64,000 bases of DNA from a bacterium (GTDB lineage: Bacteria > Patescibacteriota > Minisyncoccia > Phycocordibacterales > VMGT01): assembly GCA_030697645.1 (NCBI GenBank), contig JAUYPI010000006.1, positions 76,017 to 140,016 on the forward strand, given 5' to 3'. A program made the translations under genes and the position numbers. Positions 1,489 to 59,390 of the stretch are shown piece by piece; position 1 is the first letter of the stretch; each line of letters starts with the position of its first letter. The notes beneath the pieces are model-generated. The model made no database searches and was not told the DNA's origin. It saw nothing but the letters and a program-made list of their open reading frames with translations.

Positions 1489-3654
1489 ATGTCTGACTTC
1501 GATATCGTGATCGAAGGGGGACAGGTCGCTGTCCCCCAATCAACCAAATCGTCCTGCGCCGAGAGTACCGCTTTGAACGCGGGCAACCCCCTCGAGCGTT
1601 TACTGCAACGATCAGAGATACGCTCTCTTATAGCGCGTATACTCCGCGGCGAGCCGGTGACGAGCGTCGAAAAGCGCGCGGCGCTCTCCGAGGGGCAGTG
1701 CGAGGATGCGCAAGCGCGCGTGGCGCTCGCTGATCTTATCTTTATCGCTCTGCGGGGCCCCGACCGACGTCCTGATACGGATCACTCCATCCGAGAGCAG
1801 CAACCCGAGCAAGTGGCGAAGCCCTTGGCAGCGCAACCTCGACGTGGTCGTGGACGGCCGCGAGCGGAGCCACTGTTGTCTTTTGATGAGGCAGTGCGTG
1901 CCCTACCGCTCTTGACCCGTCGCGAGGCACAGGTTTTCAAACTTCGCTATGGCATTGGTGGTAAGGGCCAGAAGTCTGTCTCAGAGACTGCGTCCTACTT
2001 GGGGGTTTCGACCGCGAATGTATATACAACCGAGCGCAGCGCTTATGTGAGGCTCAAACGCTCCTCTGTCGTGCCGCAACCGGGACAACAAAGCGGTACA
2101 GAATCGGCGGATCAACGCACGCCACACACGATAGAAAGGACGTTGCCAAAGAAGCCAGAACAGAACCGCGAGCGGCATTTTCCCAGGTCCGAAAGGCGGC
2201 GTGGCCCGAGGCCAAAGGCAGACAAGCCCGTCGATGATGCACTGCGTGAGTTTGAGCAGGAGCGGCTGCGTGCGCTCGTCCTTGAAGACGCTCGCGAAAT
2301 GCATGGCGAGCGCGAGAGCGCGGCGAGAGCTTTGTTCACCGAAGCCCCGGAAGCCCGGTACGAGCCGGAGGCGTGGATTGGCACGATCAGCGCGTACTTT
2401 GCTGCCGCAGTGCGCCGTCCTCTTTTGTCGGCAGAGGAGACGTTGCAACTTTTCAAGAAGATTGATGCCGAGCGCAGCGAGATCGAGGCGCTCCTCAGCG
2501 CTCACCCTGCCGGCGCTCTCTCGCTTGAGGCTGCTCGACGGGAGCGCCCACCGTGGCACAACCTCGTTCGCTGGATGACGCTAAGGGAGAGAGAGAATGA
2601 ACCGCACACGTCTGAGGAGAAGGACAGAGACGCTCGAGATCGAGAGTTGCTCGATATGTCGGAGACGACCACTGAAGATGAGGAGACAGACGATCCAGAA
2701 GTTGCTCCAGGTCGGGTGCTCTCGCGCGCACTCGAGATACTCGAGGGACGACTTCTGAAGGATGGGTCTACGCTCGCATGCGCGGCGCTCTCCGTGCTTC
2801 TTTCTGAAGCTACGCCACGCCTCTCTCGGCTCATGGCGCTTGAGACAGAAGCCTTCGAGCACAACATGCGTCTGGTCACCTCGATTGCCTCACGGTTTCA
2901 GGGATTAGGGCTTGAGTACCTTGATCTTGTACAGGAGGGTAATATCGGCCTCATGCGGGCGATTGAGAAGTACGACTGGCGGCGAGGAATCCACCTCTCG
3001 ACGTACGCAGTGTGGTGGATTCGACAGGCGATTTTCCGAGCGGTTTGGGACAAGGGCAGCACGATCAGAATTCCGGTGCATATACGCGAGGCGACAATGA
3101 AACTACGTGCGGCTCATGCGCGCATCATGGCGCGGTCGGCAGGCGGTCGCGAACCTACGGACGAGGATCTTGCGCTCGAGCTCGATTGGGAGGTTAGCGA
3201 GGTATCCAAGGTGCGCGATACTCTCCGGCTAGACTCTACGCGCTCGCTCGATCAGCCGGTTTCGAGCCATTCGTCCGGATCCGACTCGGATGGGACGGCG
3301 CTCCTCGCGTTCATTCCTGATGCGAATGCGTCTGATGCCGGAGACCCTGTTACTGACATCGAGCGTCGAGAGGACGTAGCGCAGCTCCTTAAGACGCTCT
3401 CGCCGAGAGAGGAGAGGGTGCTGCGCCTGCATTATGGTATTGTCGAGGAGAAACCGCAGACACTCGAGCAGATTGGACGGGTTTTTGGCGTCTCGCGCGA
3501 GCGGATCCGGCAGATTGAGGTGAAAGCGTTTTCTAAATTACGACGGCGCATGCAGGCGCTCGACATCTCCTCGGAAGAGGAAATGGGAGAGAAGTTGCAA
3601 TCGTTCTTTTCTCATCCGCGCGAGGACTCGCGCGAAGCACAGAGGAGAGCGTGA
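1489..3654 (+). CDS. RNA polymerase sigma-70 family factor (RpoD-like core) with an unusual ~290-aa N-terminal extension
   Basis: Region 1.2-like PLLSAEETLQLFKKI. Region 2 LVQEGNIGLMRAIEKYDWRRGIHLSTYAVWWIRQAI. Region 4 HTH TLEQIGRVFGVSRERIRQIEVKAFSKLRR. The N-terminal part is Arg-rich and contains a second region-4-like HTH (LLTRREAQVFKLRYGIGG...SYLGVSTANVYTTERSAYVRLKR). Confidence 0.8.
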   Translation: MSDFDIVIEGGQVAVPQSTKSSCAESTALNAGNPLERLLQRSEIRSLIARILRGEPVTSVEKRAALSEGQCEDAQARVALADLIFIALRGPDRRPDTDHSIREQQPEQVAKPLAAQPRRGRGRPRAEPLLSFDEAVRALPLLTRREAQVFKLRYGIGGKGQKSVSETASYLGVSTANVYTTERSAYVRLKRSSVVPQPGQQSGTESADQRTPHTIERTLPKKPEQNRERHFPRSERRRGPRPKADKPVDDALREFEQERLRALVLEDAREMHGERESAARALFTEAPEARYEPEAWIGTISAYFAAAVRRPLLSAEETLQLFKKIDAERSEIEALLSAHPAGALSLEAARRERPPWHNLVRWMTLRERENEPHTSEEKDRDARDRELLDMSETTTEDEETDDPEVAPGRVLSRALEILEGRLLKDGSTLACAALSVLLSEATPRLSRLMALETEAFEHNMRLVTSIASRFQGLGLEYLDLVQEGNIGLMRAIEKYDWRRGIHLSTYAVWWIRQAIFRAVWDKGSTIRIPVHIREATMKLRAAHARIMARSAGGREPTDEDLALELDWEVSEVSKVRDTLRLDSTRSLDQPVSSHSSGSDSDGTALLAFIPDANASDAGDPVTDIERREDVAQLLKTLSPREERVLRLHYGIVEEKPQTLEQIGRVFGVSRERIRQIEVKAFSKLRRRMQALDISSEEEMGEKLQSFFSHPREDSREAQRRA

Positions 3655-3868: not shown

Positions 3869-4585
3869 ATGCCTGCAACTCATAGTGGCGTTGAAATTAT
3901 TCCCGCCATCATGCCGGACTCGCTCGCGGACCTCCTCGAGAAGGCAGGGCGCGCTGCGGGAATCGTGCCGTTTGTACAAATTGACGTGATGGACGGCAGG
4001 TTTGTGCCGAGCGTTGATTGGCCGTACACTGGCGAGAGCGCACAAAAAGAATTTGAAGAACTCGTGCGGGGCAGTAAGACCTTGCCATTCGCCGAAAAGC
4101 TCAACTACGAAGTTGACCTCATGGTCGCGGAGCCGGAGCGCTCTGTTGCGGATTGGGTGCGCGCGGGTGTGAAGCGCGTCATTGTGCATATTGAGAGCAG
4201 TACGTATATCACGGCCGCGCTGATCAGCGGTCGCGCCGCCGCAGAGGTGCGCGGTGGCGGAGTTGAATTCGCAATCGCGCTCAATACAACGACAGAGAAC
4301 ACCGTGCTCGGCCCTTACCTCGACCATATAGATTTCGTGCAGTTCATGGGGATTGAAAAAATCGGCTACCAAGGCCGAGCCTTTGACGAGCGCGTGCTGG
4401 GGAAAATCCGCGATTTACGAGAGAGGCGCTCGGGTGTTATCATAAGTGTTGACGGCGGCGTCAATTTCGACACCGCGCCGCGGCTCATTGAGTCGGGCGC
4501 GAATCGGCTCGTCTCCGGATCAGCCATTTTCGGAAGTGACGATATCCGAGCCGCAATTGAGAAACTACAAACTTCGGCAAAGTAA
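3869..4585 (+). CDS. rpe: Ribulose-phosphate 3-epimerase
   Basis: VQIDVMDGRFVP...HVD, DLMV, SVDGG motifs. Typical ~238 aa length. Confidence 0.85.
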   Translation: MPATHSGVEIIPAIMPDSLADLLEKAGRAAGIVPFVQIDVMDGRFVPSVDWPYTGESAQKEFEELVRGSKTLPFAEKLNYEVDLMVAEPERSVADWVRAGVKRVIVHIESSTYITAALISGRAAAEVRGGGVEFAIALNTTTENTVLGPYLDHIDFVQFMGIEKIGYQGRAFDERVLGKIRDLRERRSGVIISVDGGVNFDTAPRLIESGANRLVSGSAIFGSDDIRAAIEKLQTSAK

Positions 4586-4602
4586 ACCATGTCGGCACAA
4601 TT

Positions 4603-4920
4603 ATGAACAAGGAGCTAAAACAAGAATTTGCGCGGCTGCACATCCGTCTCGATGCCATCGAGATGGACGTTCGATCTGTTAAGTCAGACGTGTCAAACAT
4701 TAAGTCCGACGTGTCTACTCTGAAGTCGGATGTATCTACACTCAAGTCCGATGTTGCTGGGTTGCAGTACAATACTGCGGTACAGTTTCGTGAAGTGCGA
4801 AATGATCTCGCGATGCTCATGAAGAACCTCGATCCGCTTGGCGATCCAAATGAAGCGGCGGATCTTTATGGTCGCGTCAAGTATCTCGAATTGAAGCTCG
4901 GCATAGAGAGTGGTAAATAA
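4603..4920 (+). CDS. Small coiled-coil protein with four tandem heptad repeats (VKSDVSN/IKSDVST/LKSDVST/LKSDVAG)
   Basis: 105-aa ORF. It contains four 21-bp tandem DNA repeats at 4678-4761. Confidence 0.45.
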   Translation: MNKELKQEFARLHIRLDAIEMDVRSVKSDVSNIKSDVSTLKSDVSTLKSDVAGLQYNTAVQFREVRNDLAMLMKNLDPLGDPNEAADLYGRVKYLELKLGIESGK

Positions 4921-5079
4921 ATCCATGCTGTCTTTGCTTTTTCTTATACTTATGGGTTTGACTGTTTGGTTTGGATTTCAAAAAAAGTTTGTTGCACTCG
5001 CCATAACCTCTACGCTGCTCGTTCTTCTAATCGGGTTTTGGATTTGGCTCGGAACTCAAGTGATAATCAATTAGAGAAG

Positions 5080-5967
5080 ATGCCCCACCTCCACGAAGAC
5101 AAAATAAAATTTCTAGAGAGTAAAGCGAATGAGATTCGCATTTCGCTCATTGAGTCACTTATCGCAGCTGGCTCTGGCCACACGGCAGGCCCCTTGGGCA
5201 TGGCGGATATTTTCACCGCGTTTTATTTTCACATCCTTAATCACGATCCGAAAAATCCGCTCTGGGAAGAACGGGATAGACTCATCCTTTCAAATGGTCA
5301 CATCACGCCGATCCGTTATGCTACCATGGCGCACGCGGGGTATTTTCCGATTGAGGATTTGAAAACATTGCGGAAATTCGGCTCGCCCCTTCAAGGGCAC
5401 CCCGAGCGCGAGCGTTTGCCCGCGGTCGAGACCACGTCCGGGCCGCTCGGTTCCGGACTCGGCCAGGCGGCGGGGTACGCCTACGGCGCGCGCATGGACG
5501 GCAAGAAATTTCGCGTCTATTGCCTCATGTCCGACGGCGAGCAGCAGGCGGGGAATACCTGGGAGGCGGCGATGTTTGCGGGGAATAACAGGCTCGCGAA
5601 CCTCACGGCGGTGATGGACAGAAACAATATACAAATAAACGGTCCCACAGAGGACATTATGCCCCTCGAGCCTTTGCGCGCGAAGTACGAGGCGTTCAAC
5701 TGGCATGTGATCGAAGTCGGCGGTCACGATTTTGAGGAGTTCGTCGCGGCGGTCGAGGAAGCAAAAGCAGTACTTGAAAAACCGACGCTTATCCTCGCGC
5801 ACGTGATCCCGGGCAAAGGCATCAAAGAGATCGAAGGCGACTACCGCTGGCACGGCTGTACCCCGGGAGGCGGGCCCGAGGACGTGTTTAAGAAAGCGGA
5901 GCAGGGGGCGAAGTTTTTGGAGGAACTGCGGGCGCTTGGAGAAATGATTAAAAACGCACACGTGTAG
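5080..5967 (+). CDS. Transketolase, N-terminal (TPP-binding) subunit of a split transketolase
   Basis: GSGHTAGPLGMADI, GHPE, CLMSDGEQQAGNTWEA and NIQINGPTEDI motifs. The ATG at 5080 gives a typical start; the tracked ORF start at 4966 is probably an artefactual upstream extension. Confidence 0.85.
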   Translation: MPHLHEDKIKFLESKANEIRISLIESLIAAGSGHTAGPLGMADIFTAFYFHILNHDPKNPLWEERDRLILSNGHITPIRYATMAHAGYFPIEDLKTLRKFGSPLQGHPERERLPAVETTSGPLGSGLGQAAGYAYGARMDGKKFRVYCLMSDGEQQAGNTWEAAMFAGNNRLANLTAVMDRNNIQINGPTEDIMPLEPLRAKYEAFNWHVIEVGGHDFEEFVAAVEEAKAVLEKPTLILAHVIPGKGIKEIEGDYRWHGCTPGGGPEDVFKKAEQGAKFLEELRALGEMIKNAHV

Positions 5968-5997
5968 CTCAACGTTCCAAGTGAGAGATTTAAGGGT

Positions 5998-6372
5998 ATG
6001 GAGCCGAAACTGATACGTGAAAAAGTCAAGCCGGACGAATTGGTAAGACTGATACGCGATGGACTTTACGATACGATGGCGAAACTTGCAGTAGATGTTG
6101 AGCGCGGGATTCTTGCAATAGGCGGCGAGTGGCATTCCGACGCAGAGGAAGTGTTGACCGCGGATGGTTCTCAAGCGAATAATGTGTGGGGCGTAAATTT
6201 TTATCCTTGGAAAGAGTCGCGGGAGCGCATTGTCTATACATCGCTCATTAACCTCAAGCCGCTCGTTCCGCATCGAAAGATGGAGATTACGGATCTGGGC
6301 ATGCGAACGAAGATACATGATCTTGTCACGCGGTTATTGCTCTATGACGACGAAACCTTACCAGCCGAATAG
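5998..6372 (+). CDS. Hypothetical protein (124 aa)
   Basis: ORF directly downstream of the tkt N-subunit. No recognisable motif. Confidence 0.45.
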   Translation: MEPKLIREKVKPDELVRLIRDGLYDTMAKLAVDVERGILAIGGEWHSDAEEVLTADGSQANNVWGVNFYPWKESRERIVYTSLINLKPLVPHRKMEITDLGMRTKIHDLVTRLLLYDDETLPAE

Positions 6373-6652
6373 CGAGAAGTGGCAGTCGTTTCCACGTGAT
6401 GTCCAAATGCGGCATATCGCCGCAGAGCTCACGCGTGCAACGAGCGCCGGAGCGCGGGGGCAAGGAGAACTTGAGCAGGAATCGCTCGAGCGGTCGCTCA
6501 TACTTGTGGACGCCTCGCTCGCGGACCCGCAATGGAATGATAAAAAAGCACTCTATCGGCTTCGCGATGCGCTTGCTGCACTGTACGCAAAACATCTCGA
6601 TCCTGCATTGAGCCGCTATATTGCCGAGGTATTATTGACCACCACGTCTTAA
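6344..6652 (+). CDS. Hypothetical protein (102 aa; start chosen at the internal ATG of ORF 6230..6652)
   Basis: MTTKPYQPNSEKW... The ATG overlaps the end of the previous gene by 29 nt. The upstream part of the tracked ORF lies in the alternative frame of the preceding gene. Confidence 0.35.
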   Translation: MTTKPYQPNSEKWQSFPRDVQMRHIAAELTRATSAGARGQGELEQESLERSLILVDASLADPQWNDKKALYRLRDALAALYAKHLDPALSRYIAEVLLTTTS

Positions 6653-6656
6653 AAAC

Positions 6657-7262
6657 ATGAACAACAAATCAGCGCCTATCTTCATCATGGTGGTCGTAGG
6701 TGTTCTTGCGATCGTCCTCCTGGGTGGAATGTATTTGTCGCGTTTTTTTTCAACGAGCAACACGGATCGTAGCGGTGCAAAAACTGCCTGCACCCAAGAA
6801 GCAAAACTCTGCCCCGACGGCACCGCCGTCGGCCGCACCGGTCCGAACTGCGAGTTTGAGGCGTGCGCAACTTCGGACAACCAACTGCCAACGACCAATG
6901 AACCGAATACGTCAGAGTGGAAAACGTATCGGAATGAAGAGTATGGGTTTGAGATGAAGTACCCGCCAACATGCCGCGTTTATTTAAATGAGGTATTCGC
7001 GAAGCCGCCTACGCCGACGTGTTTTTCCATTTTTGTGAGAGGGGAGAATAGCTTTAATCTTGAAGAGTTTCTCGAAAGTGCTAAACAAGACAATTCACTT
7101 ACGGCGTTCAAAATCGGCGGTGAGGCCGCTTACCGTATTCAAGGAACCATAAAGAAAATGGATACTATAGTGGTCAAATATAATGGTTTTGTGTACACTT
7201 TTCCGGATGCCGACTTCTTATTACGGGAGGGTATTTTATCCACCGTTAAATTCACCAACTGA
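6657..7262 (+). CDS. Membrane-anchored protein, Cys-motif family member 1 (signal-anchor TM + CTQEAKLCPDGTAVGRTGPNCEFEAC + WKTYRNEEYGFE domain)
   Basis: N-terminal hydrophobic helix IFIMVVVGVLAIVLLGG. Four-cysteine motif. Paralogous to 8159..8887 and to the C-terminal half of 9433..10368. Confidence 0.6.
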   Translation: MNNKSAPIFIMVVVGVLAIVLLGGMYLSRFFSTSNTDRSGAKTACTQEAKLCPDGTAVGRTGPNCEFEACATSDNQLPTTNEPNTSEWKTYRNEEYGFEMKYPPTCRVYLNEVFAKPPTPTCFSIFVRGENSFNLEEFLESAKQDNSLTAFKIGGEAAYRIQGTIKKMDTIVVKYNGFVYTFPDADFLLREGILSTVKFTN

Positions 7263-7266
7263 TCGT

Positions 7267-7407
7267 CTCCATGATTCTTGATTCATAATTCTTACTTCAT
7301 CCGTCATGTTCCTCAACCCATACGCAAAACTCATCCAAAACCCGTTTGATCTCGCCTCGCTCGAGAAAAAGCCGACACGGGACGGCTTCGGAAAGGGTAC
7401 GTGTTGA
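7267..7407 (+). repeat. Partial copy 1 of the tktB 5' region (native-looking leader plus 34 codons, then a stop)
   Basis: ctccatgattcttgattcataattcttacttcatccgtcATG..., encoding MFLNPYAKLIQNPFDLASLEKKPTRDGFGKGTC*. This matches the tkt C-subunit N-terminus NPFDLTALEKKPTRDGFGKG at 10365. Confidence 0.6.
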
Positions 7408-7431
7408 CATACAATTGTATAAGTATACAAT
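7404..7431 (+). promoter_or_regulatory. Sigma-70-like promoter (TTGACA-16-TACAAT) overlapping palindromes ATACAATTGTAT and TTGTATAagTATACAA; probable autoregulated toxin-antitoxin promoter/operator
   Basis: TTGACA at 7404-7409, TACAAT at 7426-7431, 7 nt before the RHH start codon. Confidence 0.4.
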
Positions 7432-7437
7432 AGTATA

Positions 7438-7696
7438 TATGGCTACCATAGACTATATCACAACCAATATTCGTCTGCCGAAGGAAGATTTAAAAGTATT
7501 GAAACAGGAGGCGTTCGCGAAAGAGCAAAGTGTGGGCGCGCTTCTTCGGTCTTTGGTTCGCGAACATTTTACGGGGCGTGCGGGGGTGCACACCAAACGC
7601 GCGCGTCGTTCCGTATGGGATCTTCCGAAGCGCGCACAGAAAACCGGTGCGCGAAATCTCGCATCCAACGTTGACCGCATCGTGTATGGAATATAA
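7438..7696 (+). CDS. Ribbon-helix-helix-type antitoxin (86 aa)
   Basis: MATIDYITTNIRLPKEDLKVLKQEAFAKEQSVGALLRSLV... Its 3' end overlaps the PIN gene by 11 nt. Confidence 0.55.
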
Positions 7697-8117
7697 CCGA
7701 AAAATATTGGTTGACGCGAACGTGTTTATTGCCCTTTTGAACAAAGATGACGCACTGCATCTCCGGGCAGTCGCTCTTTGGGCCGACATGAAGCAAGAAA
7801 ATCGCGAGCTCGTTACCTTGAATGTTGTCGCGTCTGAGGCGCTGACCGTTTTGAGCCAGCGAGGAAGCAAGGCGCTCGCGCTTGAATTGGCCGAGACGCT
7901 GTACGGTGATGGTAAAAATGATATAGAAATGGTATATGCCGACCGCATGCTCGAAGAGAGAGCGCTCGAGCGATTTCGGAGCATTCGCAGTAAAAATTTT
8001 AGTTTTGTTGACACTATCATTTTGGCGGCATTAGAGCGGTACGCCATACCGGCGCTCGCCTCGTTTGATCGCATCCTTGAGAGGTATGCGAGCGCCGGTA
8101 CCTTACGGCAGGTGTAA
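7686..8117 (+). CDS. vapC: PIN-domain toxin (VapC-like)
   Basis: KILVDANVFIAL...D...E...FVDTIILAA...D acidic quartet pattern typical of PIN. 143 aa. Coupled to the upstream RHH gene. Confidence 0.7.
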   Translation: MEYNRKILVDANVFIALLNKDDALHLRAVALWADMKQENRELVTLNVVASEALTVLSQRGSKALALELAETLYGDGKNDIEMVYADRMLEERALERFRSIRSKNFSFVDTIILAALERYAIPALASFDRILERYASAGTLRQV

Positions 8118-8158
8118 TCGAGCCCTGAATCTTTGGCACGCCTAGAAATCTCCATGGT

Positions 8159-8887
8159 ATGCACAAGCGCACCACAATTGTTTCTCTGGCACTCATCATT
8201 GCCGCCGCGGGCGGGTATGTGCTGTATGCTTCAATCATTGGAGACGTGACGCAGGACAGTGGAAGTACGCAGGCGTGCACTGAGGAAGCAAAACTCTGCC
8301 CGGATGGCAGCACCGTAGGCCGCACCGGGCCGAACTGCGAGTTTGCGGCCTGTCCCAGTCCGGAAATTATTTTTGGTAAGAAAGCCGAGGAATTATGCGG
8401 GCCGCAGCCACCGGCAGAGTGTGGGCCAGGAACAGCGCTCGGATGTTACACGAAAAGCAAAAAGTGGTCTTGTTACCCAGAAATGACTGGGTTTGATACC
8501 TCGGACTGGAAAACCTACCGGAGTGAGGAGTATGGGTTTGAAGTGCGTTACCCACAACAATGGTACAAACACGAAGCGGAGCTATTTCTTTTTTTAACTC
8601 CGACGAGCCCTGAGGTTATTACCGAATCACCTGGGATTAACTTTGTTCTGAAGCCGCTCGAAGGGCGAACAATCCAGCAGTCAGAGGATACGATAAATTT
8701 TGATCGCGAGTGCCAGCCAACAATTTTTGGAGGAAGAGGTGCGACCAAATGTCATCCGGTTATTTCTTTTGCTGGAGAAAGCTTTACATTTATTCGAATG
8801 TCAGACGGCCAGTATCTTTCAATCGGTGATTATTTAACGAGCGATCTTTCTGGCCTCATTCTCTCCACCTTCAAGTTCACCAAATGA
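8159..8887 (+). CDS. Membrane-anchored protein, Cys-motif family member 2 (TM + CTEEAKLCPDGSTVGRTGPNCEFAAC + WKTYRSEEYGFE domain)
   Basis: TM helix IVSLALIIAAAGGYVLYA. Same four-cysteine motif. Extra Cys-rich stretch CGPQPPAECGPGTALGC. Paralog of 6657..7262. Confidence 0.6.
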   Translation: MHKRTTIVSLALIIAAAGGYVLYASIIGDVTQDSGSTQACTEEAKLCPDGSTVGRTGPNCEFAACPSPEIIFGKKAEELCGPQPPAECGPGTALGCYTKSKKWSCYPEMTGFDTSDWKTYRSEEYGFEVRYPQQWYKHEAELFLFLTPTSPEVITESPGINFVLKPLEGRTIQQSEDTINFDRECQPTIFGGRGATKCHPVISFAGESFTFIRMSDGQYLSIGDYLTSDLSGLILSTFKFTK

Positions 8888-8891
8888 GCGC

Positions 8892-9050
8892 CTCCATGAT
8901 TCTTGATTCATAATTCTTACTTCATCCGTCATGTCCCTCAACCCCCAAGCAAAACTCGTCCCCAACCCTTTCGACATCGCCTCGCTCGAAAAGAAGCCCA
9001 CACGGGATGGGTTCGGGAAAGGCCTTGTTGAGGCCGGAGAGATAGAAATA
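8892..9050 (+). repeat. Partial copy 2 of the tktB 5' region (same leader; ATG at 8931; 37 native codons)
   Basis: Encodes MSLNPQAKLVPNPFDIASLEKKPTRDGFGKGLVEAGE then diverges. The leader is identical over about 45 nt to copy 1. Confidence 0.6.
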
Positions 9051-9067
9051 CATGATAAAATACGATT

Positions 9068-9436
9068 ATGCATACGATAAACCAAAAAATTAAAGAGATT
9101 ACGGACACAATCGTTAAAGAGTACCAACCGGAGAAAATTATTCTCTTTGGCTCGTATGCATGGGGCGAGCCGCATGAGTGGAGTGATGTTGACTTGCTTG
9201 TGGTAAAAGAAAGTACAAAGACGCAGCTCGAACGACGACGCGAATTGCGGCGCTTGCTTTTAGACGCAGACATGCCGCTTGATATTTTAGTGCACACAAA
9301 AAAGGAATTAGAGGACAACATCAACGAGAAACGCAATCTTTTTTTAGAAGACATAGTCCGTAATGGCCTTACACTTTACTCTGCTACGCAGGGCGAGATT
9401 GAGCTTACCCATACGCCCGCAACGCTTATTACATGA
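9068..9436 (+). CDS. Minimal nucleotidyltransferase (MNT) antitoxin-type protein
   Basis: GSYAWGEPHEWSDVDLLVV is the GSx9-13DxD nucleotidyltransferase signature. 122 aa. 4-nt ATGA overlap with the downstream HEPN gene. Confidence 0.75.
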   Translation: MHTINQKIKEITDTIVKEYQPEKIILFGSYAWGEPHEWSDVDLLVVKESTKTQLERRRELRRLLLDADMPLDILVHTKKELEDNINEKRNLFLEDIVRNGLTLYSATQGEIELTHTPATLIT

Positions 9437-10368
9437 ATGACAAAACGACACAATACGCTGGCGAGTGGTTTGAGAGAGGAGACGACGATCTCCAGGTTAT
9501 GGAAGTGCTCCTGAGGAACGAGAGTATCCCCAATGTTGTTTGTTTTCATGCGGAACAGGCGGCAGAAAAATACCTGAAAGGATTCCTGGCGCATCGTGAG
9601 CGACACGCCCGCAGGGTGCACGACTTGTCCTCACTATTGCGGGTATGCTGCGAGGTGGATGCGTCATTCAAAGCGCTACAACATGACGTAGAATTTCTTG
9701 GCGATTTGTACTTTTCGTCACGTTACCCGGACAATTACACCGTGTATCAAAAGAAGGACGCCGAGGAAGCACAGGCAGCTGCGATGCGTGTCAGGGCATT
9801 CGTCCTGGGGCGAGTAAAAGGAAACAGCGCAGATGGTGAGCCCGGCTTTGGCACCGTCGGTCTCATTGTTGGCGTTGTCGCGCTCGCGGTGTTCGTTGCT
9901 CTCGGCGCGGTCGTTTTGCGCAGCCGAGAGGGAGCGGAGGACGGCGTTGCCGCCTGCACCGAAGAAGCAAAACTCTGCCCCGACGGCACCACCGCCCTCC
10001 GCACCGGGCCGAACTGCGAGTTTGCGGAGTGTCCGCTGGTCTCCACACAAGAGGCCGGACATTTAAATGTTCAGACCGACCCCGAAATGGTTATGAGGGA
10101 GGTCGCACGACTGTTGCTTACTGCTGATAGTATTGATGCTGTGTTACCGTATTTTGACGATGGTTCTCAGTCGGTGCTCAAGCGGCGTTTTTCAGAGACA
10201 GCCCTCATGCGCTCGTTGGGTACGACTTATCAATCGGCAAAGCTTGTGGAACGAACCGATACTATTGCTACATTTGGAGTAACGGTTGCAGCGCAAGACA
10301 CGGTTTATCACGGCACGATAGTACTTTATAAGTTTGAGGATGGTAGCTGGAGGATAACTTCGCCTTGA
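9433..10368 (+). CDS. HEPN-domain protein fused to TM helix and Cys-motif extracytoplasmic domain (family member 3)
   Basis: N-terminal HEPN-like HAEQAAEKYLKGFLAHRERHARRVH (R-x5-H). Then TM GTVGLIVGVVALAVFVALGAVVL. Then CTEEAKLCPDGTTALRTGPNCEFAEC. The stop overlaps the tkt C-subunit start. Confidence 0.6.
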   Translation: MNDKTTQYAGEWFERGDDDLQVMEVLLRNESIPNVVCFHAEQAAEKYLKGFLAHRERHARRVHDLSSLLRVCCEVDASFKALQHDVEFLGDLYFSSRYPDNYTVYQKKDAEEAQAAAMRVRAFVLGRVKGNSADGEPGFGTVGLIVGVVALAVFVALGAVVLRSREGAEDGVAACTEEAKLCPDGTTALRTGPNCEFAECPLVSTQEAGHLNVQTDPEMVMREVARLLLTADSIDAVLPYFDDGSQSVLKRRFSETALMRSLGTTYQSAKLVERTDTIATFGVTVAAQDTVYHGTIVLYKFEDGSWRITSP

Positions 10369-11390
10369 ATTGTATGATTTACAGAGACGCGCATCTCGTC
10401 GAAAACCCTTTCGACCTCACCGCGCTCGAGAAAAAGCCGACGCGCGATGGGTTTGGAAAAGGCCTCGTTGAGGCTGGGGAGAAAGACCCCCGCGTGGTGG
10501 TGCTGTGCGCTGACCTTGCGGATTCCACGCGCGCGCAGTGGTTTCGGGATAAGTTTCCGGATCGCTACATCGAGCTTGGAGTTGCGGAGCAGAACATGGC
10601 GACGGTTGCAAGCGGGCTTGCGAACTACGGGAAGATTCCCTTCATGGCCTCATACGCGGCATTCAATCCGGGGCGCAACAATGAGCAAATCAGGACGACG
10701 ATCGCGCTCAATAATGTGCCGGTGAAAATCGTGGGCTCGCATGGCGGTATCAGCGTCGCGCAGGACGGTGCCACGCACCAGGCGCTCGAAGATGTGGGAC
10801 TTATGCGTATGCAGCCGAACATGGTGGTCATTGTGCCAGTGGATGCCGAAGAGGCGCGGAAGGCAACGTATGCTGCGGCGTTCAACGGGGCTCCGACATA
10901 TCTCCGCTACACGCGTGACAACCGGCCGGTGTTCACCACCGCCGACTCTCCGTTTGAGATAGGGAGGGCGAATTTGCTCTGGGACGGTAATCCCGAGGGA
11001 GACCTCGACGTCGCTGTCATCGGCTGCTCCCCGGTCCTGCACAATGCGCTCATGGCGGTTAAAGAGCTCGCCGAAGAGCGCGGACTTAAGATTGCGGTGC
11101 TGAATTGCCACACAATAAAACCGCTCGACCGCGATGCGATTGTCGGCATTGCAAAGCGAGCCGGAGCCGTTGTCACCGCCGAGGAACACCAAATCGCTGG
11201 CGGCATGGGCTCGGCAATCGCAGAACTACTTGTCCAAGAACATCCAGTACCGATTGAATTCGTCGGCGTCCACGATCGCTTCGGCCAGTCAGGAACCGTC
11301 GAGGAACTTTTCAAGGAATACGGCCTCGATGCGTCGCACATCAAGGAGGCGATCGTGCGGGTGCATGGACGAAAACAAGCCCTTAACTAA
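10365..11390 (+). CDS. Transketolase, C-terminal (pyrimidine-binding/C-terminal domain) subunit
   Basis: NPFDLTALEKKPTRDGFGKG..GSHGGISVAQDGATHQALEDVGLMR, plus a C-terminal domain. The first ~13 codons differ from the two upstream fragment copies. The tracked start is TTG at 10365; the true start may be the ATG at 10374. Confidence 0.85.
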   Translation: MNCMIYRDAHLVENPFDLTALEKKPTRDGFGKGLVEAGEKDPRVVVLCADLADSTRAQWFRDKFPDRYIELGVAEQNMATVASGLANYGKIPFMASYAAFNPGRNNEQIRTTIALNNVPVKIVGSHGGISVAQDGATHQALEDVGLMRMQPNMVVIVPVDAEEARKATYAAAFNGAPTYLRYTRDNRPVFTTADSPFEIGRANLLWDGNPEGDLDVAVIGCSPVLHNALMAVKELAEERGLKIAVLNCHTIKPLDRDAIVGIAKRAGAVVTAEEHQIAGGMGSAIAELLVQEHPVPIEFVGVHDRFGQSGTVEELFKEYGLDASHIKEAIVRVHGRKQALN

Positions 11391-11526
11391 TTACTAATCA
11401 ATATCTAAACGATCTGAATTATGGGGCTAGAATTATGAATCATGGGGGTTTTGAATGGTGAAAATTCAAACAAGTATACGCGACCATAATTCATGATTCC
11501 TACTTCTTAATTCACCGTGACCAATC

Positions 11527-12096
11527 GTGCAAAAAATCATCGTTGCCTCAAAAAATCCGGTGAAGATACATGCGGCGGAGGATGGATTTCGGCTCATGTT
11601 TCCCGAGGGAGCATTTGAGATCGAGGGCGTCACGGTACCTTCCGGCGTCCCTGACCAACCGATGTCGGACGCGGAAACTTTTGCGGGCGCATGGAACCGC
11701 GCCACGGGTGCGAGCGGGGTGGCGGCAGACGCGCATTTTTATGTCGGCATCGAGGGCGGGATTGAGGAGCGAGACGGCGAACTTGCTGCTCTCGCGTGGG
11801 TGGTTGTGCGCTCAAGCGACGGCAGGTTCGGGAAGGGAAGGAGTGGGACATTCTTTCTACCGGAGCGTCTTGCGGTGCTTGTACGCGCTGGCCGCGAGCT
11901 CGGCGATGCGAGCGACGAAGTCTTTAACGAGAAGAATTCTAAACAAGGCCTCGGCACCGTGGGGTTCCTCTCTGGCGGTGTTATGGATCGGACACAATAT
12001 TATGTGAGTGCTGTCACCCTCGCGCTATTTCCGTTCCGGAACGCGCATTTGTATTCAAACCGCATAGCTACCGCATTTCTGCGGTCGCAAAAATGA
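11527..12096 (+). CDS. yjjX: Inosine/xanthosine triphosphatase (YjjX/DUF84 family)
   Basis: VASKNPVKIHAAEDGF...VPSGVPDQPMSDAETFAGAWNRA...ALFPF pattern matches YjjX. GTG start. Confidence 0.65.
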   Translation: MQKIIVASKNPVKIHAAEDGFRLMFPEGAFEIEGVTVPSGVPDQPMSDAETFAGAWNRATGASGVAADAHFYVGIEGGIEERDGELAALAWVVVRSSDGRFGKGRSGTFFLPERLAVLVRAGRELGDASDEVFNEKNSKQGLGTVGFLSGGVMDRTQYYVSAVTLALFPFRNAHLYSNRIATAFLRSQK

Positions 12097-20130: not shown

Positions 20131-20334
20131 ACCCGCGATGCGTTGACAGAATTATCAGAACGACCAAACGCCTCCCCGTGCGATATCGGGGAGGTGTTTG
20201 GGGGGTTTCTGTGCAACAATTTTTGCTAGAATCAGTTCAATTGTCGCTATGAGCAAAGATGTCGGGCGACCCCCGCCGTGCGAAAGCTCCAAGCTTCAAA
20301 AAACAAGCTCCAGTTCATGTAAATTCCAAGCTCC

Positions 20335-20470
20335 AACCAACAATTTCAAAACAAACTTCAAATTCCAATGCATCAAATCTCAAACACGTACGTCGTGTTT
20401 GGAAATTGGATTTTGAATATTGAGATTTGTTTGGAAATTGTTGGTTGGAAATTGGAGCTTCGTCGTGGTG
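20335..20470. repeat. Intergenic k-mer palindromic element (ttggaaatt family), long imperfect inverted repeat centred on cacgtacgtcgtg
   Basis: caaacttcaaattccaatgcatcaaatctcaaacacg | cgtgtttggaaattggattttgaatattgagatttgtttggaaattg. Shares an exact 21-mer with the element at 59359-59379 (reverse complement). Confidence 0.7.
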
Positions 20471-39419: not shown

Positions 39420-41705
39420 TTATTGCTCGTTGCCTGTTGCTCGTCCGCCCGGCCGGTGATTTGCACACTCTTTATTACTGCAGCGCTCAGGAATGGTTTT
39501 CGTCCCCTCCATCATGAGTGAGCCGCAGAGGGGGCAGATGCGGCCGGTTGGTTTTGCTTTGATTGCATGTTTGCACGCGGGGTAGTTTGAACAGCCGTAG
39601 AAGAGTCCGAATTTCCCGCGCCGCTCCGCCATCTCGCCCTTGCCGCATTTTGGACAAGGAACGCCCGTGCTTGTCGCTTGCTGCGTGCTGCTTGCCGCCT
39701 TTTTAATATACTTGCACTTCGGATACTTGCCGCACCCAACAAACTTTCCAAATTTTCCATCGCGTTCGACAAGCGCGCCGCCGCACTCGGGGCAGCGCTC
39801 GCCGGTCTCCTGGGGCGGCTTCACCTCCTCGCCGTGCTCCGACCGCGCGCCTTCGCATTCGGGAAACCTGCTACAGCTCATGAACGTGCCGGAGCGGCTG
39901 AGCTTCATCACCATGGCGCTCCCGCAGGTCGGGCAGCGAAATTGCTTTGGTGCGGGACCGAGATCCGTGAGCCGCGGGACGTTCTGTCTTGCCGCGACGT
40001 CCTTGCTAAACGGCGTGTAGAAATCGGCAAGCGTCTTGGCATACTCGCGCGCTCCGCGCGCGATATCGTCGAGTTCATCCTCCATCTTCGAGGTGAAGGT
40101 ATCGCTTATGTAGGAGGCAAAATTTTTCTCGAGGAACGTGCTTACGACATCGCCCATCGCGGTGGGCTTCAGTGACCGGCCTTCTTTCTCGACGTATTCG
40201 CGATCCTGGATCGTCTTGATGATGGAGGCGTATGTCGAAGGCCTGCCGATGCCGCGTTTTTCAAGTTCCTTCACGAGCCCCGCTTCGCTGTAGCGTGGCG
40301 GGGGCTGCGTTTGTTTGCCCTCGCTCTCGAGCGAGCGGAGAGTGAGTGGTTCCTCGCGAGCGACTTTCGGAAGCTCGATGTCCTCGCCGCGCGAGGCCGG
40401 GTCCGCGGCGAGCCAGCCGTCAAATTTTGTGCGGGAGCCAATGGCAGAAAATGCGGGAACGTCTTTTGCTTCTATGGGTACTGCGACGCGCGCCGTAATT
40501 TTCGTCTTGATGAGCTCGGCCGCGGCCATCTGGCTTGCGAGCGTACGTGCGCGGATCAGCGCGTAGAGGCGTTTTTGCTCTTCGGTAGCGCCTGCGGATG
40601 CGCGCGTGATGTCCGTCGGACGGATCGCCTCGTGCGCTTCCTGCGCGCTTTTGCTCGTGGTTTTATACTGTCGCAGCGTGACATACCGCTCGCCGAATTT
40701 CTTGGTGACAGCTGCGCCGATTGAGCTCCGGGCTTCCTCTGCGAGCGTCGTCGAATCGGTGCGCATGTAGGTGATGTGCCCCTGCTCATAGAGCTGCTGC
40801 GCAGTGCGCATGGTGCGCGCCGGGGAGAAGCCGAGCCGCGAGCTTGCGGCCTGCTGGAGGGTCGAGGTCGTGAACGGAGAGCGCGGGGCCCGAGACGTTT
40901 CCGTCTCGAGTACCTCGGCGACAATCCAGCTGCCGCTGCGGCCGACTTTGAGTATTCGCTCCGCCTCCTCGCGGGTCTTTGGCTCCTCGACGCACACGAG
41001 CGTCATGCCACTCCCTTTTTTTGTCGCACAGAGCGCGGTGAGCACCCAGTAGTTCTCCGGCACGAACGCGCGGATCTCTCGCTCGCGCTCGACGAGAATA
41101 CGCAGGGCAGGGGACTGCACTCGGCCTGCCGAGAGCCCGTAGCGGAGCTTCTTCCAGAGTAGGCCCGAGAGGTCGTAGCCGACGAGGCGGTCGAGGACTC
41201 TGCGCGCCTCCTGCGCCCTGACGAGCCGCTCGTCAATATCTCGCGGATGCGCGAGCGCTTCTTTCACTGCGCGCTCCGTAATTTCGTGGAAGACCACACG
41301 TTTAACGTTTGGAATTTGGAATTTGGAATTTGGAATTTGTTTGGAGCTTGTTTTTTGGAATTTGGAATTTCCGAGGCCGAGCGCCTCGGCGACGTGCCAC
41401 GCGATCGCCTCGCCCTCTCGATCCGGGTCGGTCGCAAGCAGCACTTCGTCCGCTTTTTTTGCTGCAGCTTTGAGATCGGCGATAACTTTTGTTTTCTCCG
41501 GGATGATTTCGTAGTGCGGCGCGAATCCGTGCGCAATGTCCACCGCGTTTTCATTCTTCTTCGGCAGATCACGCACATGGCCCACCGAGGCCTTGACGCT
41601 GTAGCCCGGCCCCAGGTATTTGCTGATCGTTTTCGATTTTGCAGGAGATTCGACGATGACGAGTTTCATACGAGCAGTATGCAGCGTGCAGCAGGCAGTA
41701 AGCAA
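39420..41705 (-). CDS. topA: DNA topoisomerase I with C-terminal zinc ribbons; contains an in-frame repeat-derived insertion
   Basis: Toprim MKLVIVESPAKSKTISKYLG. Active-site region. C-terminal CPTCGS/CPECGG/CPKCGKG/CPLCGS zinc fingers. Confidence 0.85.
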   Translation of the reverse strand: MLTACCTLHTARMKLVIVESPAKSKTISKYLGPGYSVKASVGHVRDLPKKNENAVDIAHGFAPHYEIIPEKTKVIADLKAAAKKADEVLLATDPDREGEAIAWHVAEALGLGNSKFQKTSSKQIPNSKFQIPNVKRVVFHEITERAVKEALAHPRDIDERLVRAQEARRVLDRLVGYDLSGLLWKKLRYGLSAGRVQSPALRILVEREREIRAFVPENYWVLTALCATKKGSGMTLVCVEEPKTREEAERILKVGRSGSWIVAEVLETETSRAPRSPFTTSTLQQAASSRLGFSPARTMRTAQQLYEQGHITYMRTDSTTLAEEARSSIGAAVTKKFGERYVTLRQYKTTSKSAQEAHEAIRPTDITRASAGATEEQKRLYALIRARTLASQMAAAELIKTKITARVAVPIEAKDVPAFSAIGSRTKFDGWLAADPASRGEDIELPKVAREEPLTLRSLESEGKQTQPPPRYSEAGLVKELEKRGIGRPSTYASIIKTIQDREYVEKEGRSLKPTAMGDVVSTFLEKNFASYISDTFTSKMEDELDDIARGAREYAKTLADFYTPFSKDVAARQNVPRLTDLGPAPKQFRCPTCGSAMVMKLSRSGTFMSCSRFPECEGARSEHGEEVKPPQETGERCPECGGALVERDGKFGKFVGCGKYPKCKYIKKAASSTQQATSTGVPCPKCGKGEMAERRGKFGLFYGCSNYPACKHAIKAKPTGRICPLCGSLMMEGTKTIPERCSNKECANHRPGGRATGNEQ
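41306..41372. repeat. ttggaattt-family k-mer repeat inserted in frame inside topA
   Basis: gtttggaatttggaatttggaatttggaatttgtttggagcttgttttttggaatttggaatttcc, coding GNSKFQKTSSKQIPNSKFQIPNVK on the minus strand. Confidence 0.65.
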
Positions 41706-43134: not shown

Positions 43135-43265
43135 TACGAATGTCAAAGTTCAAAACGCAAGCAAAGTCAAAAGTCAAAACGCAAAAGTCAAAACCGCAGC
43201 CTCAAAGTCAAAAGTTTGAAAGGTTTTAGGCTGTGGTTTTGAGCTTTGACTTTTGCGTTTTGACT
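43135..43265. repeat. Intergenic k-mer palindromic element (gtcaaaagtcaaaacgcaaa family) forming a long hairpin
   Basis: gtcaaaacgcaaaagtcaaaaccgcagcctcaaag...aggctgtggttttgagctttgacttttgcgttttgac. Confidence 0.65.
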
Positions 43266-43277
43266 TGGCTTGTAGCA

Positions 43278-45224: not shown

Positions 45225-45370
45225 CACCCGCATTAATTTTCAATTTTGCAATTTTCAATGAATTTTCAATGTGTCAATGACTCAATGGCGGACGACGTCG
45301 TGTTTGAAAATTGTGTCATTGCAAAATTGATTGAAAATTGAAAATTGAACATTGGAAATTTCTGACTCAA
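45225..45370. repeat. Intergenic k-mer palindromic element (caaaattgaaaattg family), copy flanking mraY upstream
   Basis: Shares an exact 24-mer cattgcaaaattgattgaaaattg (45317-45340) and the core cgtgtttgaaaattg with the copy at 46486-46650. Confidence 0.7.
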
Positions 45371-45414: not shown

Positions 45415-46485
45415 ATGATAATAAATGTAGCTAAAGTCTTCCTTCCCGCCACCATTGCTTTCGCGATCGGTGTCGTGTTCGCGCCGCTCCTGGCACACTA
45501 CTTATACCGCTTTCGCATGTGGAAGAAGAGTGCGAAAGCGGTAGCGCTCGACGGCCGTGGTACGCCGATCTTTCACTCGCTCCACCGCGATAGGGAAACA
45601 TCGACGCCGAAACTTGGCGGCATCGTGATCTGGGGAAGCACGCTTGTGACAGTACTTCTCATCAGAATTGCCGAAGACGTCATTCCCTCAGCGCTCACGG
45701 CAAAACTTGAGTTCCTCAGTCGTTCGCAGACGTGGCTGCCACTCGTAACACTCCTCGTGGGGGCAACCATCGGTTTTATAGACGACATGCTTGATGTGCG
45801 GGGAGGCGGAAAGTACCTCGCTGGTGGACTTTCGCTCCGGATGCGGCTCGGTATCGTTGCTTTGACCGGACTCATCGGTGGGTGGTGGTTTTTCACGAAA
45901 CTTGGAGTCTCAAGCATCATAGTGCCGTTTGCCGGTGAGGTGATACTCGGCTGGCTCCTCGTGCCGCTCTTCATCATCGTTCTGCTCGCGATCTACTCAG
46001 GCGGCGTCATTGATGGTATTGATGGCCTTGCCGGCGGGGTGTTTGCGGCGATATTCGGCGCGTATGGTGGCATCGCGTTTTTTCAAAACCAGATTGACCT
46101 CGCGGCATTCTCGGCGGTCGTCGTTGGCGGCATTCTTGCTTTTCTCTGGTTTAACATTCCACCTGCTCGATTCTATATGTCCGAGACAGGCACCATGGGG
46201 CTTACCATGACGCTCGCGGTCGTCGCATTTCTCACCAAGGCCGTCGTCGTCTTGCCCATAATCGCTTTTCCGCTGCTTGCCACAACCGCCTCGGACGTGA
46301 TCCAGCTCGCTTCAAAGCGCTTCCGCGGAGGGAGAAAGGTGTTCCTTATCGCGCCAGTGCACCACCACTTCGAAGCCCTCGGCTGGCCGCCGTACAAAGT
46401 GACGATGCGTTACTGGGTGATTTCGGTCATCTGCGCGCTCCTTGGCATGATCGTGGCCCTCGTGGGGAACCAGGTCACGCTTTGA
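45415..46485 (+). CDS. mraY: Phospho-N-acetylmuramoyl-pentapeptide transferase
   Basis: Polytopic membrane protein with a DD-containing cytoplasmic loop IDDMLDVRGG and HHHFE. Confidence 0.85.
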   Translation: MIINVAKVFLPATIAFAIGVVFAPLLAHYLYRFRMWKKSAKAVALDGRGTPIFHSLHRDRETSTPKLGGIVIWGSTLVTVLLIRIAEDVIPSALTAKLEFLSRSQTWLPLVTLLVGATIGFIDDMLDVRGGGKYLAGGLSLRMRLGIVALTGLIGGWWFFTKLGVSSIIVPFAGEVILGWLLVPLFIIVLLAIYSGGVIDGIDGLAGGVFAAIFGAYGGIAFFQNQIDLAAFSAVVVGGILAFLWFNIPPARFYMSETGTMGLTMTLAVVAFLTKAVVVLPIIAFPLLATTASDVIQLASKRFRGGRKVFLIAPVHHHFEALGWPPYKVTMRYWVISVICALLGMIVALVGNQVTL

Positions 46486-46650
46486 ATTTTCAATTTTCAA
46501 TGCTCAATTTTCAATAAATTTTCAATCCGCCAGCTGGCGGACCCAATGGCTCAATGACGAATCACGGACGAACGTCAGCGTGTTTGAAAATTGATTCATT
46601 GCAAAATTGATTGAAAATTGGAAAATTGATAATTGAAAATTCAGACTCGA
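46486..46650. repeat. Intergenic k-mer palindromic element (caaaattgaaaattg family), copy flanking mraY downstream
   Basis: 24-mer cattgcaaaattgattgaaaattg at 46597-46620. Arms gaattttcaattttcaatgctcaattttcaat / attgaaaattggaaaattgataattgaaaattc. Confidence 0.7.
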
Positions 46651-59305: not shown

Positions 59306-59319
59306 ACGCGCATAACGAA

Positions 59320-59390
59320 TTTCCAAATTCCAAAAAACCCGTCTCCAAACACGACGTGCGTGTTTGAGATTTGATGCATTTTTCGCTTTA
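59320..59390. repeat. ttggaaatt-family element after the M23 peptidase stop; contains the exact 21-mer reverse-complement match to 20368-20388
   Basis: cgaatttccaaattccaaaaaacccgtctccaaacacgacgtgcgtgtttgagatttgatgcat. 59359-59379 is the reverse complement of atgcatcaaatctcaaacacg. Confidence 0.7.

Follow-up and report, generated by a model that had tools for sequence, protein, structure and literature searches.

The region between the transketolase subunit genes

In an uncultivated groundwater bacterium of the Patescibacteria, Paceibacteria-like by the names on related records (contig JAUYPI010000006.1 of assembly GCA_030697645.1) the two subunits of transketolase are encoded by separate genes, tktA and tktB, and the 4.4 kb between them carry two displaced copies of the tktB 5' end together with genes for toxin-antitoxin (TA) modules and membrane proteins. 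Here, this region is described, compared with related loci and discussed as what is probably a displacement array upstream of an essential gene. The window, i.e., the whole 64 kb of DNA that were analysed, is core chromosome by its content, with genes coding for a sigma factor, ParB, ScpA, DNA polymerase III subunits, UvrD, FtsW, MurG and tRNA synthetases. The split of the transketolase could be confirmed: tktA (5080-5967; Pfam Transketolase_N, E 7e-58), the left border of the array, codes for the N-terminal subunit, an identical copy of which is present in three other assemblies, and tktB (10374-11390, 338 amino acids) codes for the subunit containing the Transket_pyr and Transketolase_C domains of Pfam, its product being 100% identical to the recorded protein P0001. 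These two genes and all genes between them lie on the + strand.

Directly 3' of tktA, a DUF5674 gene (5998-6372; Pfam DUF5674, E 5e-24) and a 102-amino-acid open reading frame (ORF; 6344-6652) overlap by 29 nucleotides (nt). Next comes CysMP1 (6657-7262), the first of the Cys-motif membrane protein (CysMP) genes, whose product has an N-terminal transmembrane (TM) helix, the four-cysteine motif CTQEAKLCPDGTAVGRTGPNCEFEAC, the motif WKTYRNEEYGFE and a variable ectodomain ending in STVKFTN. It is followed by the first copy of an exact 43-nt repeat (7267-7309), comprising a leader with four 7-nt repeats (7271-7298), an ATG at 7306 and one more base, and by the first displaced tktB 5' fragment (7306-7408; MFLNPYAKLIQNPFDLASLEKKPTRDGFGKG). 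Fragment 1 runs into the predicted promoter of an RHH-PIN module (7404-7431; TTGACA-16-TACAAT, matching at 11 of 12 positions), in which the RHH gene (7439-7696; a weak Pfam match, E 0.0025) and the PIN gene (7686-8117; E 7e-13) overlap by 11 nt. The same order then recurs with CysMP2 (8159-8887; ending in STFKFTK), the second copy of the 43-nt repeat (8892-8934; the leader and ATGT) and fragment 2 of 37 codons (8931-9041; MSLNPQAKLVPNPFDIASLEKKPTRDGFGKGLVEAGE), whose reading frame continues to 9080 and is annotated as a 49-amino-acid hypothetical protein. Each fragment is thus preceded by a CysMP gene and an identical 43-nt leader and followed by a TA module, the second of which consists of an MNT-type nucleotidyltransferase (NTase) gene (9068-9436; E 5e-12) and, overlapping it by 4 nt, a HEPN gene fused to a TM helix, a Cys motif and an ectodomain (9433-10368; E 5e-22). 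Both RHH + PIN and NTase + HEPN are two-gene operons with domains of known TA families (type II / type VII) and represent putative toxin-antitoxin pairs.

The functional tktB, finally, begins with a variant N-terminus (MIYRDAHLVENPFD). An earlier note on this DNA had its start overlapping the stop of the HEPN-fusion gene; gene callers and homologues place the ATG at 10374 instead, 5 nt after that stop. Apart from the NTase, which matches the candidate family PDC-S09, PADLOC recognised nothing in the region, which is therefore not a recognised defence island, and an Rfam search over 4500-11800 returned nothing meaningful. Two tracts of DNA are conserved amongst the surface-protein genes. The first is a 92-nt tract coding for the Cys motif (6786-6877, with further copies at 8273-8364 and 9952-10043; 79-90% identity), which serves as a homology tract for reshuffling. 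The second codes for WKTYRNEEYGFE (6907-6973, second copy 8496-8562) and is a second recombination breakpoint region.

That two partial copies of the tktB 5' end lie between the subunit genes, as the earlier note had claimed, is borne out by alignments of fragment 1 (7322-7397 against 10387-10462, 79%, E 5e-11) and fragment 2 (8955-9046 against 10395-10486, 82%, E 4e-18) with the resident gene. The leader which the note had seen before both copies is part of the exact 43-nt repeat; 37 nt of this repeat, up to the start codon, occur exactly twice in the 64 kb (7269-7305 and 8894-8930), as opposed to not once in 100 shuffles, and it is embedded in a wider repeat (7233-7396 and 8858-9022; 85% identity over 165 nt, E 9e-46). 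The N-termini of both fragments are indeed native-looking, being of the type M.LNP.AKL..N.FD that is seen in homologues. Less accurate was the view that the functional tktB starts with unrelated codons: its start does differ, but it is a second N-terminal variant which recurs both in the related locus L011 (MLVQDQKL) and in a displaced fragment of L012 (MLYKVGKL), and homology with the fragments resumes at about codon 7 (AHLVE versus AKLVP) and hence before NPFD. Likewise, of the 34 codons assigned to fragment 1, homology is clear to codon 31 and, though decayed, traceable to about codon 33-34, at which point the GTTGA of tktB merges with the -35 element TTGACA of the RHH-PIN promoter. The ORFs of 33-49 amino acids at these sites, at present annotated as hypothetical proteins, are remnants of pseudogenes, and a protein search with the 49-amino-acid ORF returned itself as the only match. 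The possibility that the fragments act as functional upstream peptides was rejected, as neither their end points nor the frames downstream of them are constant from genome to genome.

Since an assembler could also produce repeats of this kind by collapsing strain variants of a single CysMP-tktB region, or by chaining them, into a false tandem, the assemblies were compared. Three other assemblies hold a 100% identical sequence. Their short-read contigs break at the 43-nt repeat, and in one related contig, L015, which is a possible chimera, a palindromic repeat connects the array with lepA. However, in an independent assembly (GCA_034376905.1) contig JAXMIX010000192 crosses repeat copy 1 into bases specific for fragment 1, ending at window position 7320, and contig JAXMIX010000207 begins at 7271 and crosses copy 2, so that both copies are read through into copy-specific sequence. 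Moreover, the copies are only 85% identical beyond the 43 nt, homologous tandem arrays occur in at least six other assemblies from different sites, and in Logan contigs (k = 31) of two runs, whose sequence is 100% identical, the breaks fall inside the 43-nt repeat, as was to be expected. On the basis of assembled contigs rather than of reads, the tandem structure is accordingly not an assembly artefact, an explanation to which we give next to no chance. Because the identical 4.4 kb in three samples represent the same population, they are uninformative on ongoing activity, either way.

The L015 join to lepA runs via a palindromic element of about 100 nt; as a chimera and a rearrangement could not be distinguished there, the join was not used. 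The same element (ATATCAACACTCCGAC...GTCGGAGTGTTGATAT) lies inside a CysMP pseudogene of L011 (3372-3474) and marks the point where L015 switches to lepA. Palindromic intergenic elements of about 100-200 nt are also found elsewhere in the window (20325-20456, 43158-43272, 45235-45353 and 60271-60460), with related copies at 41307-41370, 59314-59380 and 46485-46648.

Related arrays and the origin of the fragments

A scan of genome contigs returned only two relatives, at 63% identity. In L009 and L010, with 63% identity in tktB, tktA and tktB are adjacent or overlapping. CysMP homologues, in turn, sit immediately upstream of tktB in L012 as well as in L020 and L021 (tktB 74% and 88% identical), the latter two having a gene for a membrane protein of the Cys-motif type directly upstream. 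The arrays of close relatives are built from the same kinds of parts in other combinations. In L011 (tktB 87% identical in amino acids and about 84% in nucleotides) the order is tktA, DUF5674, ORF, CysMP pseudogene, leader, a fragment of 37 codons, MNT, HEPN::CysMP and tktB, without the unit of RHH-PIN and CysMP2. L017, of which the tktA part is 99.7% identical to L011, has the same arrangement but contains, in addition, a BrnT/CopG module; this is delimited by a direct repeat of 213 nt, which represents the CysMP 5' end and terminates at the Cys motif, and the linker of its HEPN fusion between the Cys motif and the WKTYRNEEYGFE (WKTYR) tract is swapped relative to L011. L012 (tktB 87% in amino acids) carries a fragment of about 25 codons, an AbiE-like pair, a CysMP gene, a leader, a second fragment of about 13 codons, BrnT/CopG, a further CysMP gene and a leader before tktB. 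In the more distant L016, a CysMP-like gene, MNT and HEPN::CysMP are followed by a fragment of about 28 codons and other genes. Even in L022 and L023 (tktA 71%, tktB 53%) tktA is followed by a gene for a pilin-like membrane protein, a fragment of 15 codons, BrnT/CopG, a fragment of 26 codons, an RHH-PIN module 79% identical to that of the window, and tktB; here the cassettes contain no CysMP gene.

Displaced remnants number two in the window and one to two in each of L011, L012, L016, L022 and L025 (for the latter see below), and a unit is composed of a two-gene TA or TA-like module and the initial 13-37 codons of the essential gene that lies downstream, usually together with a gene for a Cys-motif surface protein and a short AT-rich leader. 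Amongst close relatives (tktB 81-88% identical) the cargo may be MNT-HEPN alone, MNT-HEPN with BrnT/A added, or AbiE and BrnT/A. The adjacency of the subunit genes in the distant relatives and the differing cassette sets in the close ones indicate an insertion hotspot on the time scale of species divergence, and the suggestion of the earlier note that repeated insertions each left a displaced tktB 5' copy is upheld by this comparison. The event that created the junction between fragment 2 and the NTase gene is old, as this junction is common to the window, L011, L015 and L017. The DUF5674 gene and its overlapping ORF, which lie directly 3' of tktA in L011 and L017 as well, may be the two-gene module of the oldest unit; their layout resembles a TA-like module of two genes, and neither gene had a PADLOC or NCBIfam match.

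Two further observations concern related loci. In L013 (4722-7738; tktA 57%, tktB 52%) three membrane-protein genes, one of them with a Cys module, lie between the subunit genes, with neither TA modules nor fragments, and membrane-protein genes at this place may predate the cassettes. L017 has, just upstream of its BrnT/CopG module, 33 nt copied from the tktA 3' end (3201-3233, reverse-complemented; EKFIEELRALG; 27 of 33 nt match the window's tktA), which form a scar from the other border of the hotspot.

The joints between fragments and cargo show that the displaced pieces do not end at a fixed site. Their end points vary from codon ~13 through ~25, ~28 and ~31-34 to codon 37, and comparison of the fragment/cargo junctions revealed no shared motif. 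Between the window, L022 and L025, homology of the RHH-PIN module extends exactly from the -35 TTGACA to the PIN stop, and in the window as well as in L025 the GTTGA of tktB is fused to this TTGACA, a junction which is shared by descent.

In L025, the array flanks not tktB but lysS, the gene for a class I lysine-tRNA ligase, in the order greA end, MNT, HEPN::CysMP, leader, a lysS fragment of 13 codons, RHH-PIN, MNT-HepT, CysMP, leader and lysS. Between the lysS fragment and the RHH-PIN promoter lies a scar of 39 nt that aligns to tktB codons 21-33 (KPTRDGFGKGLVE) with a score of 32-34, as compared with a mean of 15 for shuffled sequences (0 of 1000 shuffles were as good), and that ends at the GTTGA/TTGACA joint exactly as in the window. 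This nested scar and the shared joint imply that the unit of tktB fragment and RHH-PIN arose once, spread between genomes, and moved from the tktB to the lysS site. As candidate microhomologies, the shared (G)TTGA may be named for the joint between tktB and RHH-PIN, and the stretch where both genes read GCCNACGC for that between the lysS and tktB pieces.

With respect to the origin of the fragments, the codon positions at which they vary are informative. Across codons 8-31 of fragment 1, fragment 2 and tktB, variable sites are distributed over the three codon positions as 6/1/16, and in the stretch encoding EKKPTRDGFGKG as 0/0/11, i.e., all 11 differences are third-position and silent. The third-position bias between fragments 1 and 2 is significant (binomial p = 6.6e-5), the ratio of nonsynonymous to synonymous divergence (pN/pS) is 0.09-0.31, and pS amounts to 0.44-0.68, a divergence of the size seen between species. 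In a dead fragment that decays in place, changes would be expected to accumulate at all codon positions. The divergence at third positions therefore indicates that the fragments diverged as the starts of working tktB genes in different lineages and were united only later. They are of foreign origin, and on this pattern of substitutions they and the resident tktB end represent different functional alleles brought together by lateral acquisition. An identity matrix of the 5' segments was limited to 72 nt, which is too short for a tree.

The same data bear on the alternative that a segment of CysMP, leader and tktB 5' end was duplicated locally by unequal crossing-over, with TA modules being inserted at the junctions later and the copies diverging in place. 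Such duplication would account for leaders that are more alike within a genome (identical in the window, similar in L012) than between genomes, for the 90-94% identity of the L022 fragments to the resident tktB 5' end, and for the duplicated segment always matching the local downstream gene, be it tktB or lysS. However, changes in copies diverging in place should not be confined to third positions (0/0/11 in the conserved peptide; pN/pS 0.09), each unit carries a different TA family, the CysMP copies are only about 38% identical outside the motifs, and neither the tktB scar at the lysS locus nor the identical junction of tktB and RHH-PIN across genomes and loci is readily reconciled with a local event. 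We therefore hold local duplication to be a rather improbable origin of the array.

Several properties of the membrane proteins and their neighbours deserve mention in their own right. The fusion of HEPN, TM helix, four-cysteine motif and extracellular domain (window 9433-10368; L011 4187-5341; L016, reverse-complemented, 1541-2674; L025 582-1517) is without exception preceded by an MNT-type nucleotidyltransferase gene and occurs as a conserved fusion in several species; a HEPN partner that is predicted to be membrane-anchored and outward-facing is unusual for MNT-HEPN pairs. The Cys motif itself belongs to a module of about 30 amino acids, C-x3-AK-x-CPDG-x2-VGRTGPNCEF-x2-C (window 8270-8360, CysMP2 residues ~38-67), which was found in 8104 protein clusters at E<=1e-3, many proteins having up to 10-11 tandem copies, and which no Pfam or NCBIfam model matched. 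It is also present on a viral contig of 61.6 kb (L018, IMGVR_UViG_3300037755_000275) in a protein of 152 amino acids (CPMDAKSCPDGSVVGRTGPNCEFAPCP; 6553-7011, - strand) with a C-terminal TM helix, whose gene is neighboured by large structural-looking genes. The 5' part of CysMP1 contains a run of eight T (6743-6750), where the L011/L017 orthologue has seven, shifting the frame, and additionally TGG replaced by TGA (about 2722-2728 and 2896 in L011); this could mean either that the gene is a pseudogene or that a surface protein undergoes phase variation at the homopolymer. Finally, a 105-amino-acid protein with tandem 7-residue repeats (KSDVSNI KSDVSTL KSDVSTL KSDVAGL) is encoded between rpe and tktA (4603-4920), with a shorter homologue at the same place in L011 and L017.

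Homologous displacement versus dedicated recombination as possible mechanisms

Based on the architecture and variability of these loci, we consider it rather probable that the 4.4 kb are a displacement array upstream of an essential gene, generated by homologous recombination anchored in that gene together with illegitimate joints or circular intermediates. Units would enter on DNA from diverged relatives. At the right end, homologous recombination might take place inside the conserved body of tktB, and at the left end an illegitimate join might form at microhomology in the 5' end of the resident gene; an equivalent route would be the integration of a circle carrying the 5' segment by a single RecA crossover. 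In either case the new gene start would come with the incoming DNA, leaving tktB intact, and the old start together with its upstream surface-protein gene would be pushed upstream as a dead remnant. Once established, units could spread by ordinary homologous recombination and be reshuffled at three conserved tracts, namely the Cys motif, the WKTYRNEEYGFE tract, and the stretch from gene end through leader to tktB start. The indel bounded by 213 nt and the swapped linker that distinguish L011 and L017 show such homologous reshuffling of units. Direct repeats on both sides make a cassette prone to deletion, and post-segregational killing by the TA modules would select against such a loss.

The earlier note had interpreted the displaced copies as att-like. 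In such a scenario, a recombinase encoded elsewhere would act on a site in the leader or the first tktB codons, small non-autonomous cassettes would integrate in tandem, and each tktB 5' fragment would be an attL-like remnant. Tandem direct repeats of the end of a target gene are in fact the classic footprint of integrative elements, and the 43 identical nt at 7267-7309 and 8892-8934 stand out from diverged flanks. On the other hand, the absence of a recombinase gene at the locus, already remarked upon in the note, was confirmed: none was found with Pfam in the ORFs of the locus or in the 40 largest other ORFs of the 64-kb window, including no Phage_integrase match that would indicate intI, and no integrase, resolvase or transposase is present amongst the called genes of L011, L012, L022 and L025. 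Neither inverted repeats at the boundaries nor attC-like hairpins were found when both strands of three boundary regions were folded (z -1.7 to +0.7 relative to shuffles), and the dif core CATAA-N6-TTATG, a crude pattern that may not be that of this phylum, did not occur in the window with up to one mismatch. The viral contigs that were scanned contained neither the tktB 5' motif nor the RHH-PIN operator, and the 4.4 kb had no DNA match in plasmid or phage collections. Furthermore, fragment end points scattered from codon 13 to 37 lack a common junction motif, leaders are not conserved between genomes, and the same architecture exists at lysS, whose 5' sequence is unrelated, with a tktB scar nested inside. 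The array at lysS implies that tktB is not a specific target sequence, and a tktB-specific recombinase is hard to reconcile with it. The att-like reading is not supported by these data, and site-specific integration is in our view improbable.

Some observations nevertheless weigh against displacement by homologous recombination. The screen for recombinase genes covered the 64-kb window only, and an enzyme acting in trans may be encoded elsewhere in the genome. All fragments retain at least codons 1-13, so that a crossover site in that stretch is possible, and the majority of joints are located in the first 40 codons of the target gene, a clustering which exceeds that of random illegitimate joining, except if units, after a small number of founding events, were spread for the most part by homology. 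The leaders are identical over 43 nt while their flanks have a pS of ~0.68. Displacement has to invoke an extra event here, e.g., a recent gene conversion or crossover, and the identity could also be read as an att core, for which it is the best argument. However, the leaders of L012 have no more than 16 identical bases in common, an argument against a general core, and as leaders differ between genomes at approximately the genome-wide rate, we read the 43-nt identity as a recent conversion or crossover tract and not as a sign of constraint.

The leaders have a further peculiarity, namely tandem heptamers of the form NTN[AC]TTC (e.g., ATGATTC TTGATTC ATAATTC TTACTTC and ATAATTC ATGATTC CTACTTC TTAATTC). 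Sites with four units each are found on the + strand just upstream of both tktB fragments (7271-7298 and 8896-8923) and of the gene following tktB (11486-11513), the last of these being accompanied by an inverted copy of two units (11430-11443, - strand), and nowhere else in the 64 kb, where 0.3 would be expected from shuffles. Leaders with a similar 7-nt period are also present in L011 and, on the opposite strand, in L025. Some factor of the host or of the cassettes might recognise the heptamers and promote excision of TA-CysMP cassettes and their integration upstream of essential genes, and indeed a CysMP gene and leader precede the target gene at the tktB and lysS arrays alike. We nonetheless regard such a dedicated system as just as improbable as site-specific integration: the junctions lie in the coding fragment and not in the leader, L022 and L023 possess TA cassettes and tktB fragments with no CysMP inside the cassettes, no candidate enzyme was found in the genes screened, and the heptamers may be a mere promoter or 5' untranslated region feature.

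A broader proposal, which we consider unlikely though not negligible, regards the arrays as the product of a mobile cassette system that operates without a recombinase, like an integron without integrase. The unit would then consist of a TA module, in many cases accompanied by a gene for a surface protein, and of a short segment from the 5' end of an essential gene; it may be excised as a circle by RecA recombination between flanking repeats and re-integrate into the same essential gene of related cells, its 5' piece acting as a portable homologous 'att'. The TA pair may kill cells that lose the unit, the array may store alternative surface-protein genes, and the leader with its heptamer repeats might belong to the machinery.

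Known arrays and implications

Integrative elements residing in gene ends, such as phage 21 and e14 in icd or islands in tRNA genes, employ an integrase and a fixed crossover core. In common with the array described here, their target stays intact by means of a supplied end, partial target copies flank the insertions, and tandem accumulation is possible; here, in contrast, no integrase was found in the ORFs screened, end points are variable, and the same unit is present at two unrelated genes. Integron cassette arrays and the Xer-dependent dif modules of Acinetobacter plasmids frequently carry TA cargo, which is thought to stabilise the array. They resemble the present loci as arrays of small promoter-proximal cassettes that have TA cargo and no recombinase of their own. 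However, intI, attC-like folds and dif-like sites were not found here, the cassettes have their own predicted promoters, and their boundaries are pieces of housekeeping genes.

Closer parallels are offered by displacement arrays at polymorphic toxin loci. For the displaced C-terminal tips of Rhs proteins, homologous recombination with circular intermediates has been proposed (Jackson et al. 2009, PMC2935791). There as here, a conserved anchor is kept in the functional gene, laterally acquired ends displace the previous end, and displaced ends accumulate, each with a piece of the anchor and without a dedicated recombinase. The differences are that in the present case it is the 5' end which is displaced, so that the array grows upstream, that the anchor is a housekeeping gene (tktB, or lysS in L025) and not a polymorphic toxin gene, and that the cargo consists of RHH-PIN, MNT-HEPN, BrnT/A and AbiE-like modules plus membrane proteins instead of toxin tips with immunity genes. 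Similarly, homology-facilitated illegitimate recombination and later spread by plain homologous recombination have been proposed for the immunity gene arrays of the type VI secretion system in Vibrio cholerae (Kirchberger et al. 2017, PMC5361080). These orphan immunity arrays and the orphan cdiA-CT/cdiI modules of contact-dependent inhibition (PMC3150448) share with our loci the sequential displacement, the differences between close relatives and the foreign modules. However, displacement affects the 3' end there and the 5' end here, no secretion system forms the context of the present array, and the modules retained there plausibly confer immunity, as opposed to the addiction-type TA pairs and membrane proteins found here.

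The principle of the displacement array would thereby come to cover housekeeping genes in addition to polymorphic toxin loci, and 5' as well as 3' ends. In practice, it is precisely at this locus that the repeats interrupt short-read assemblies. Protection of cassettes between repeats against deletion may be the reason why TA modules are the usual cargo, and the displaced gene starts constitute a readable fossil record of DNA exchange between diverged lineages, in which nested scars give both order and route. For the Patescibacteria with their small, streamlined genomes, this would mean that genes for TA modules and surface proteins can accumulate next to essential genes by a recombinase-free route, even without recognisable mobile-element machinery.

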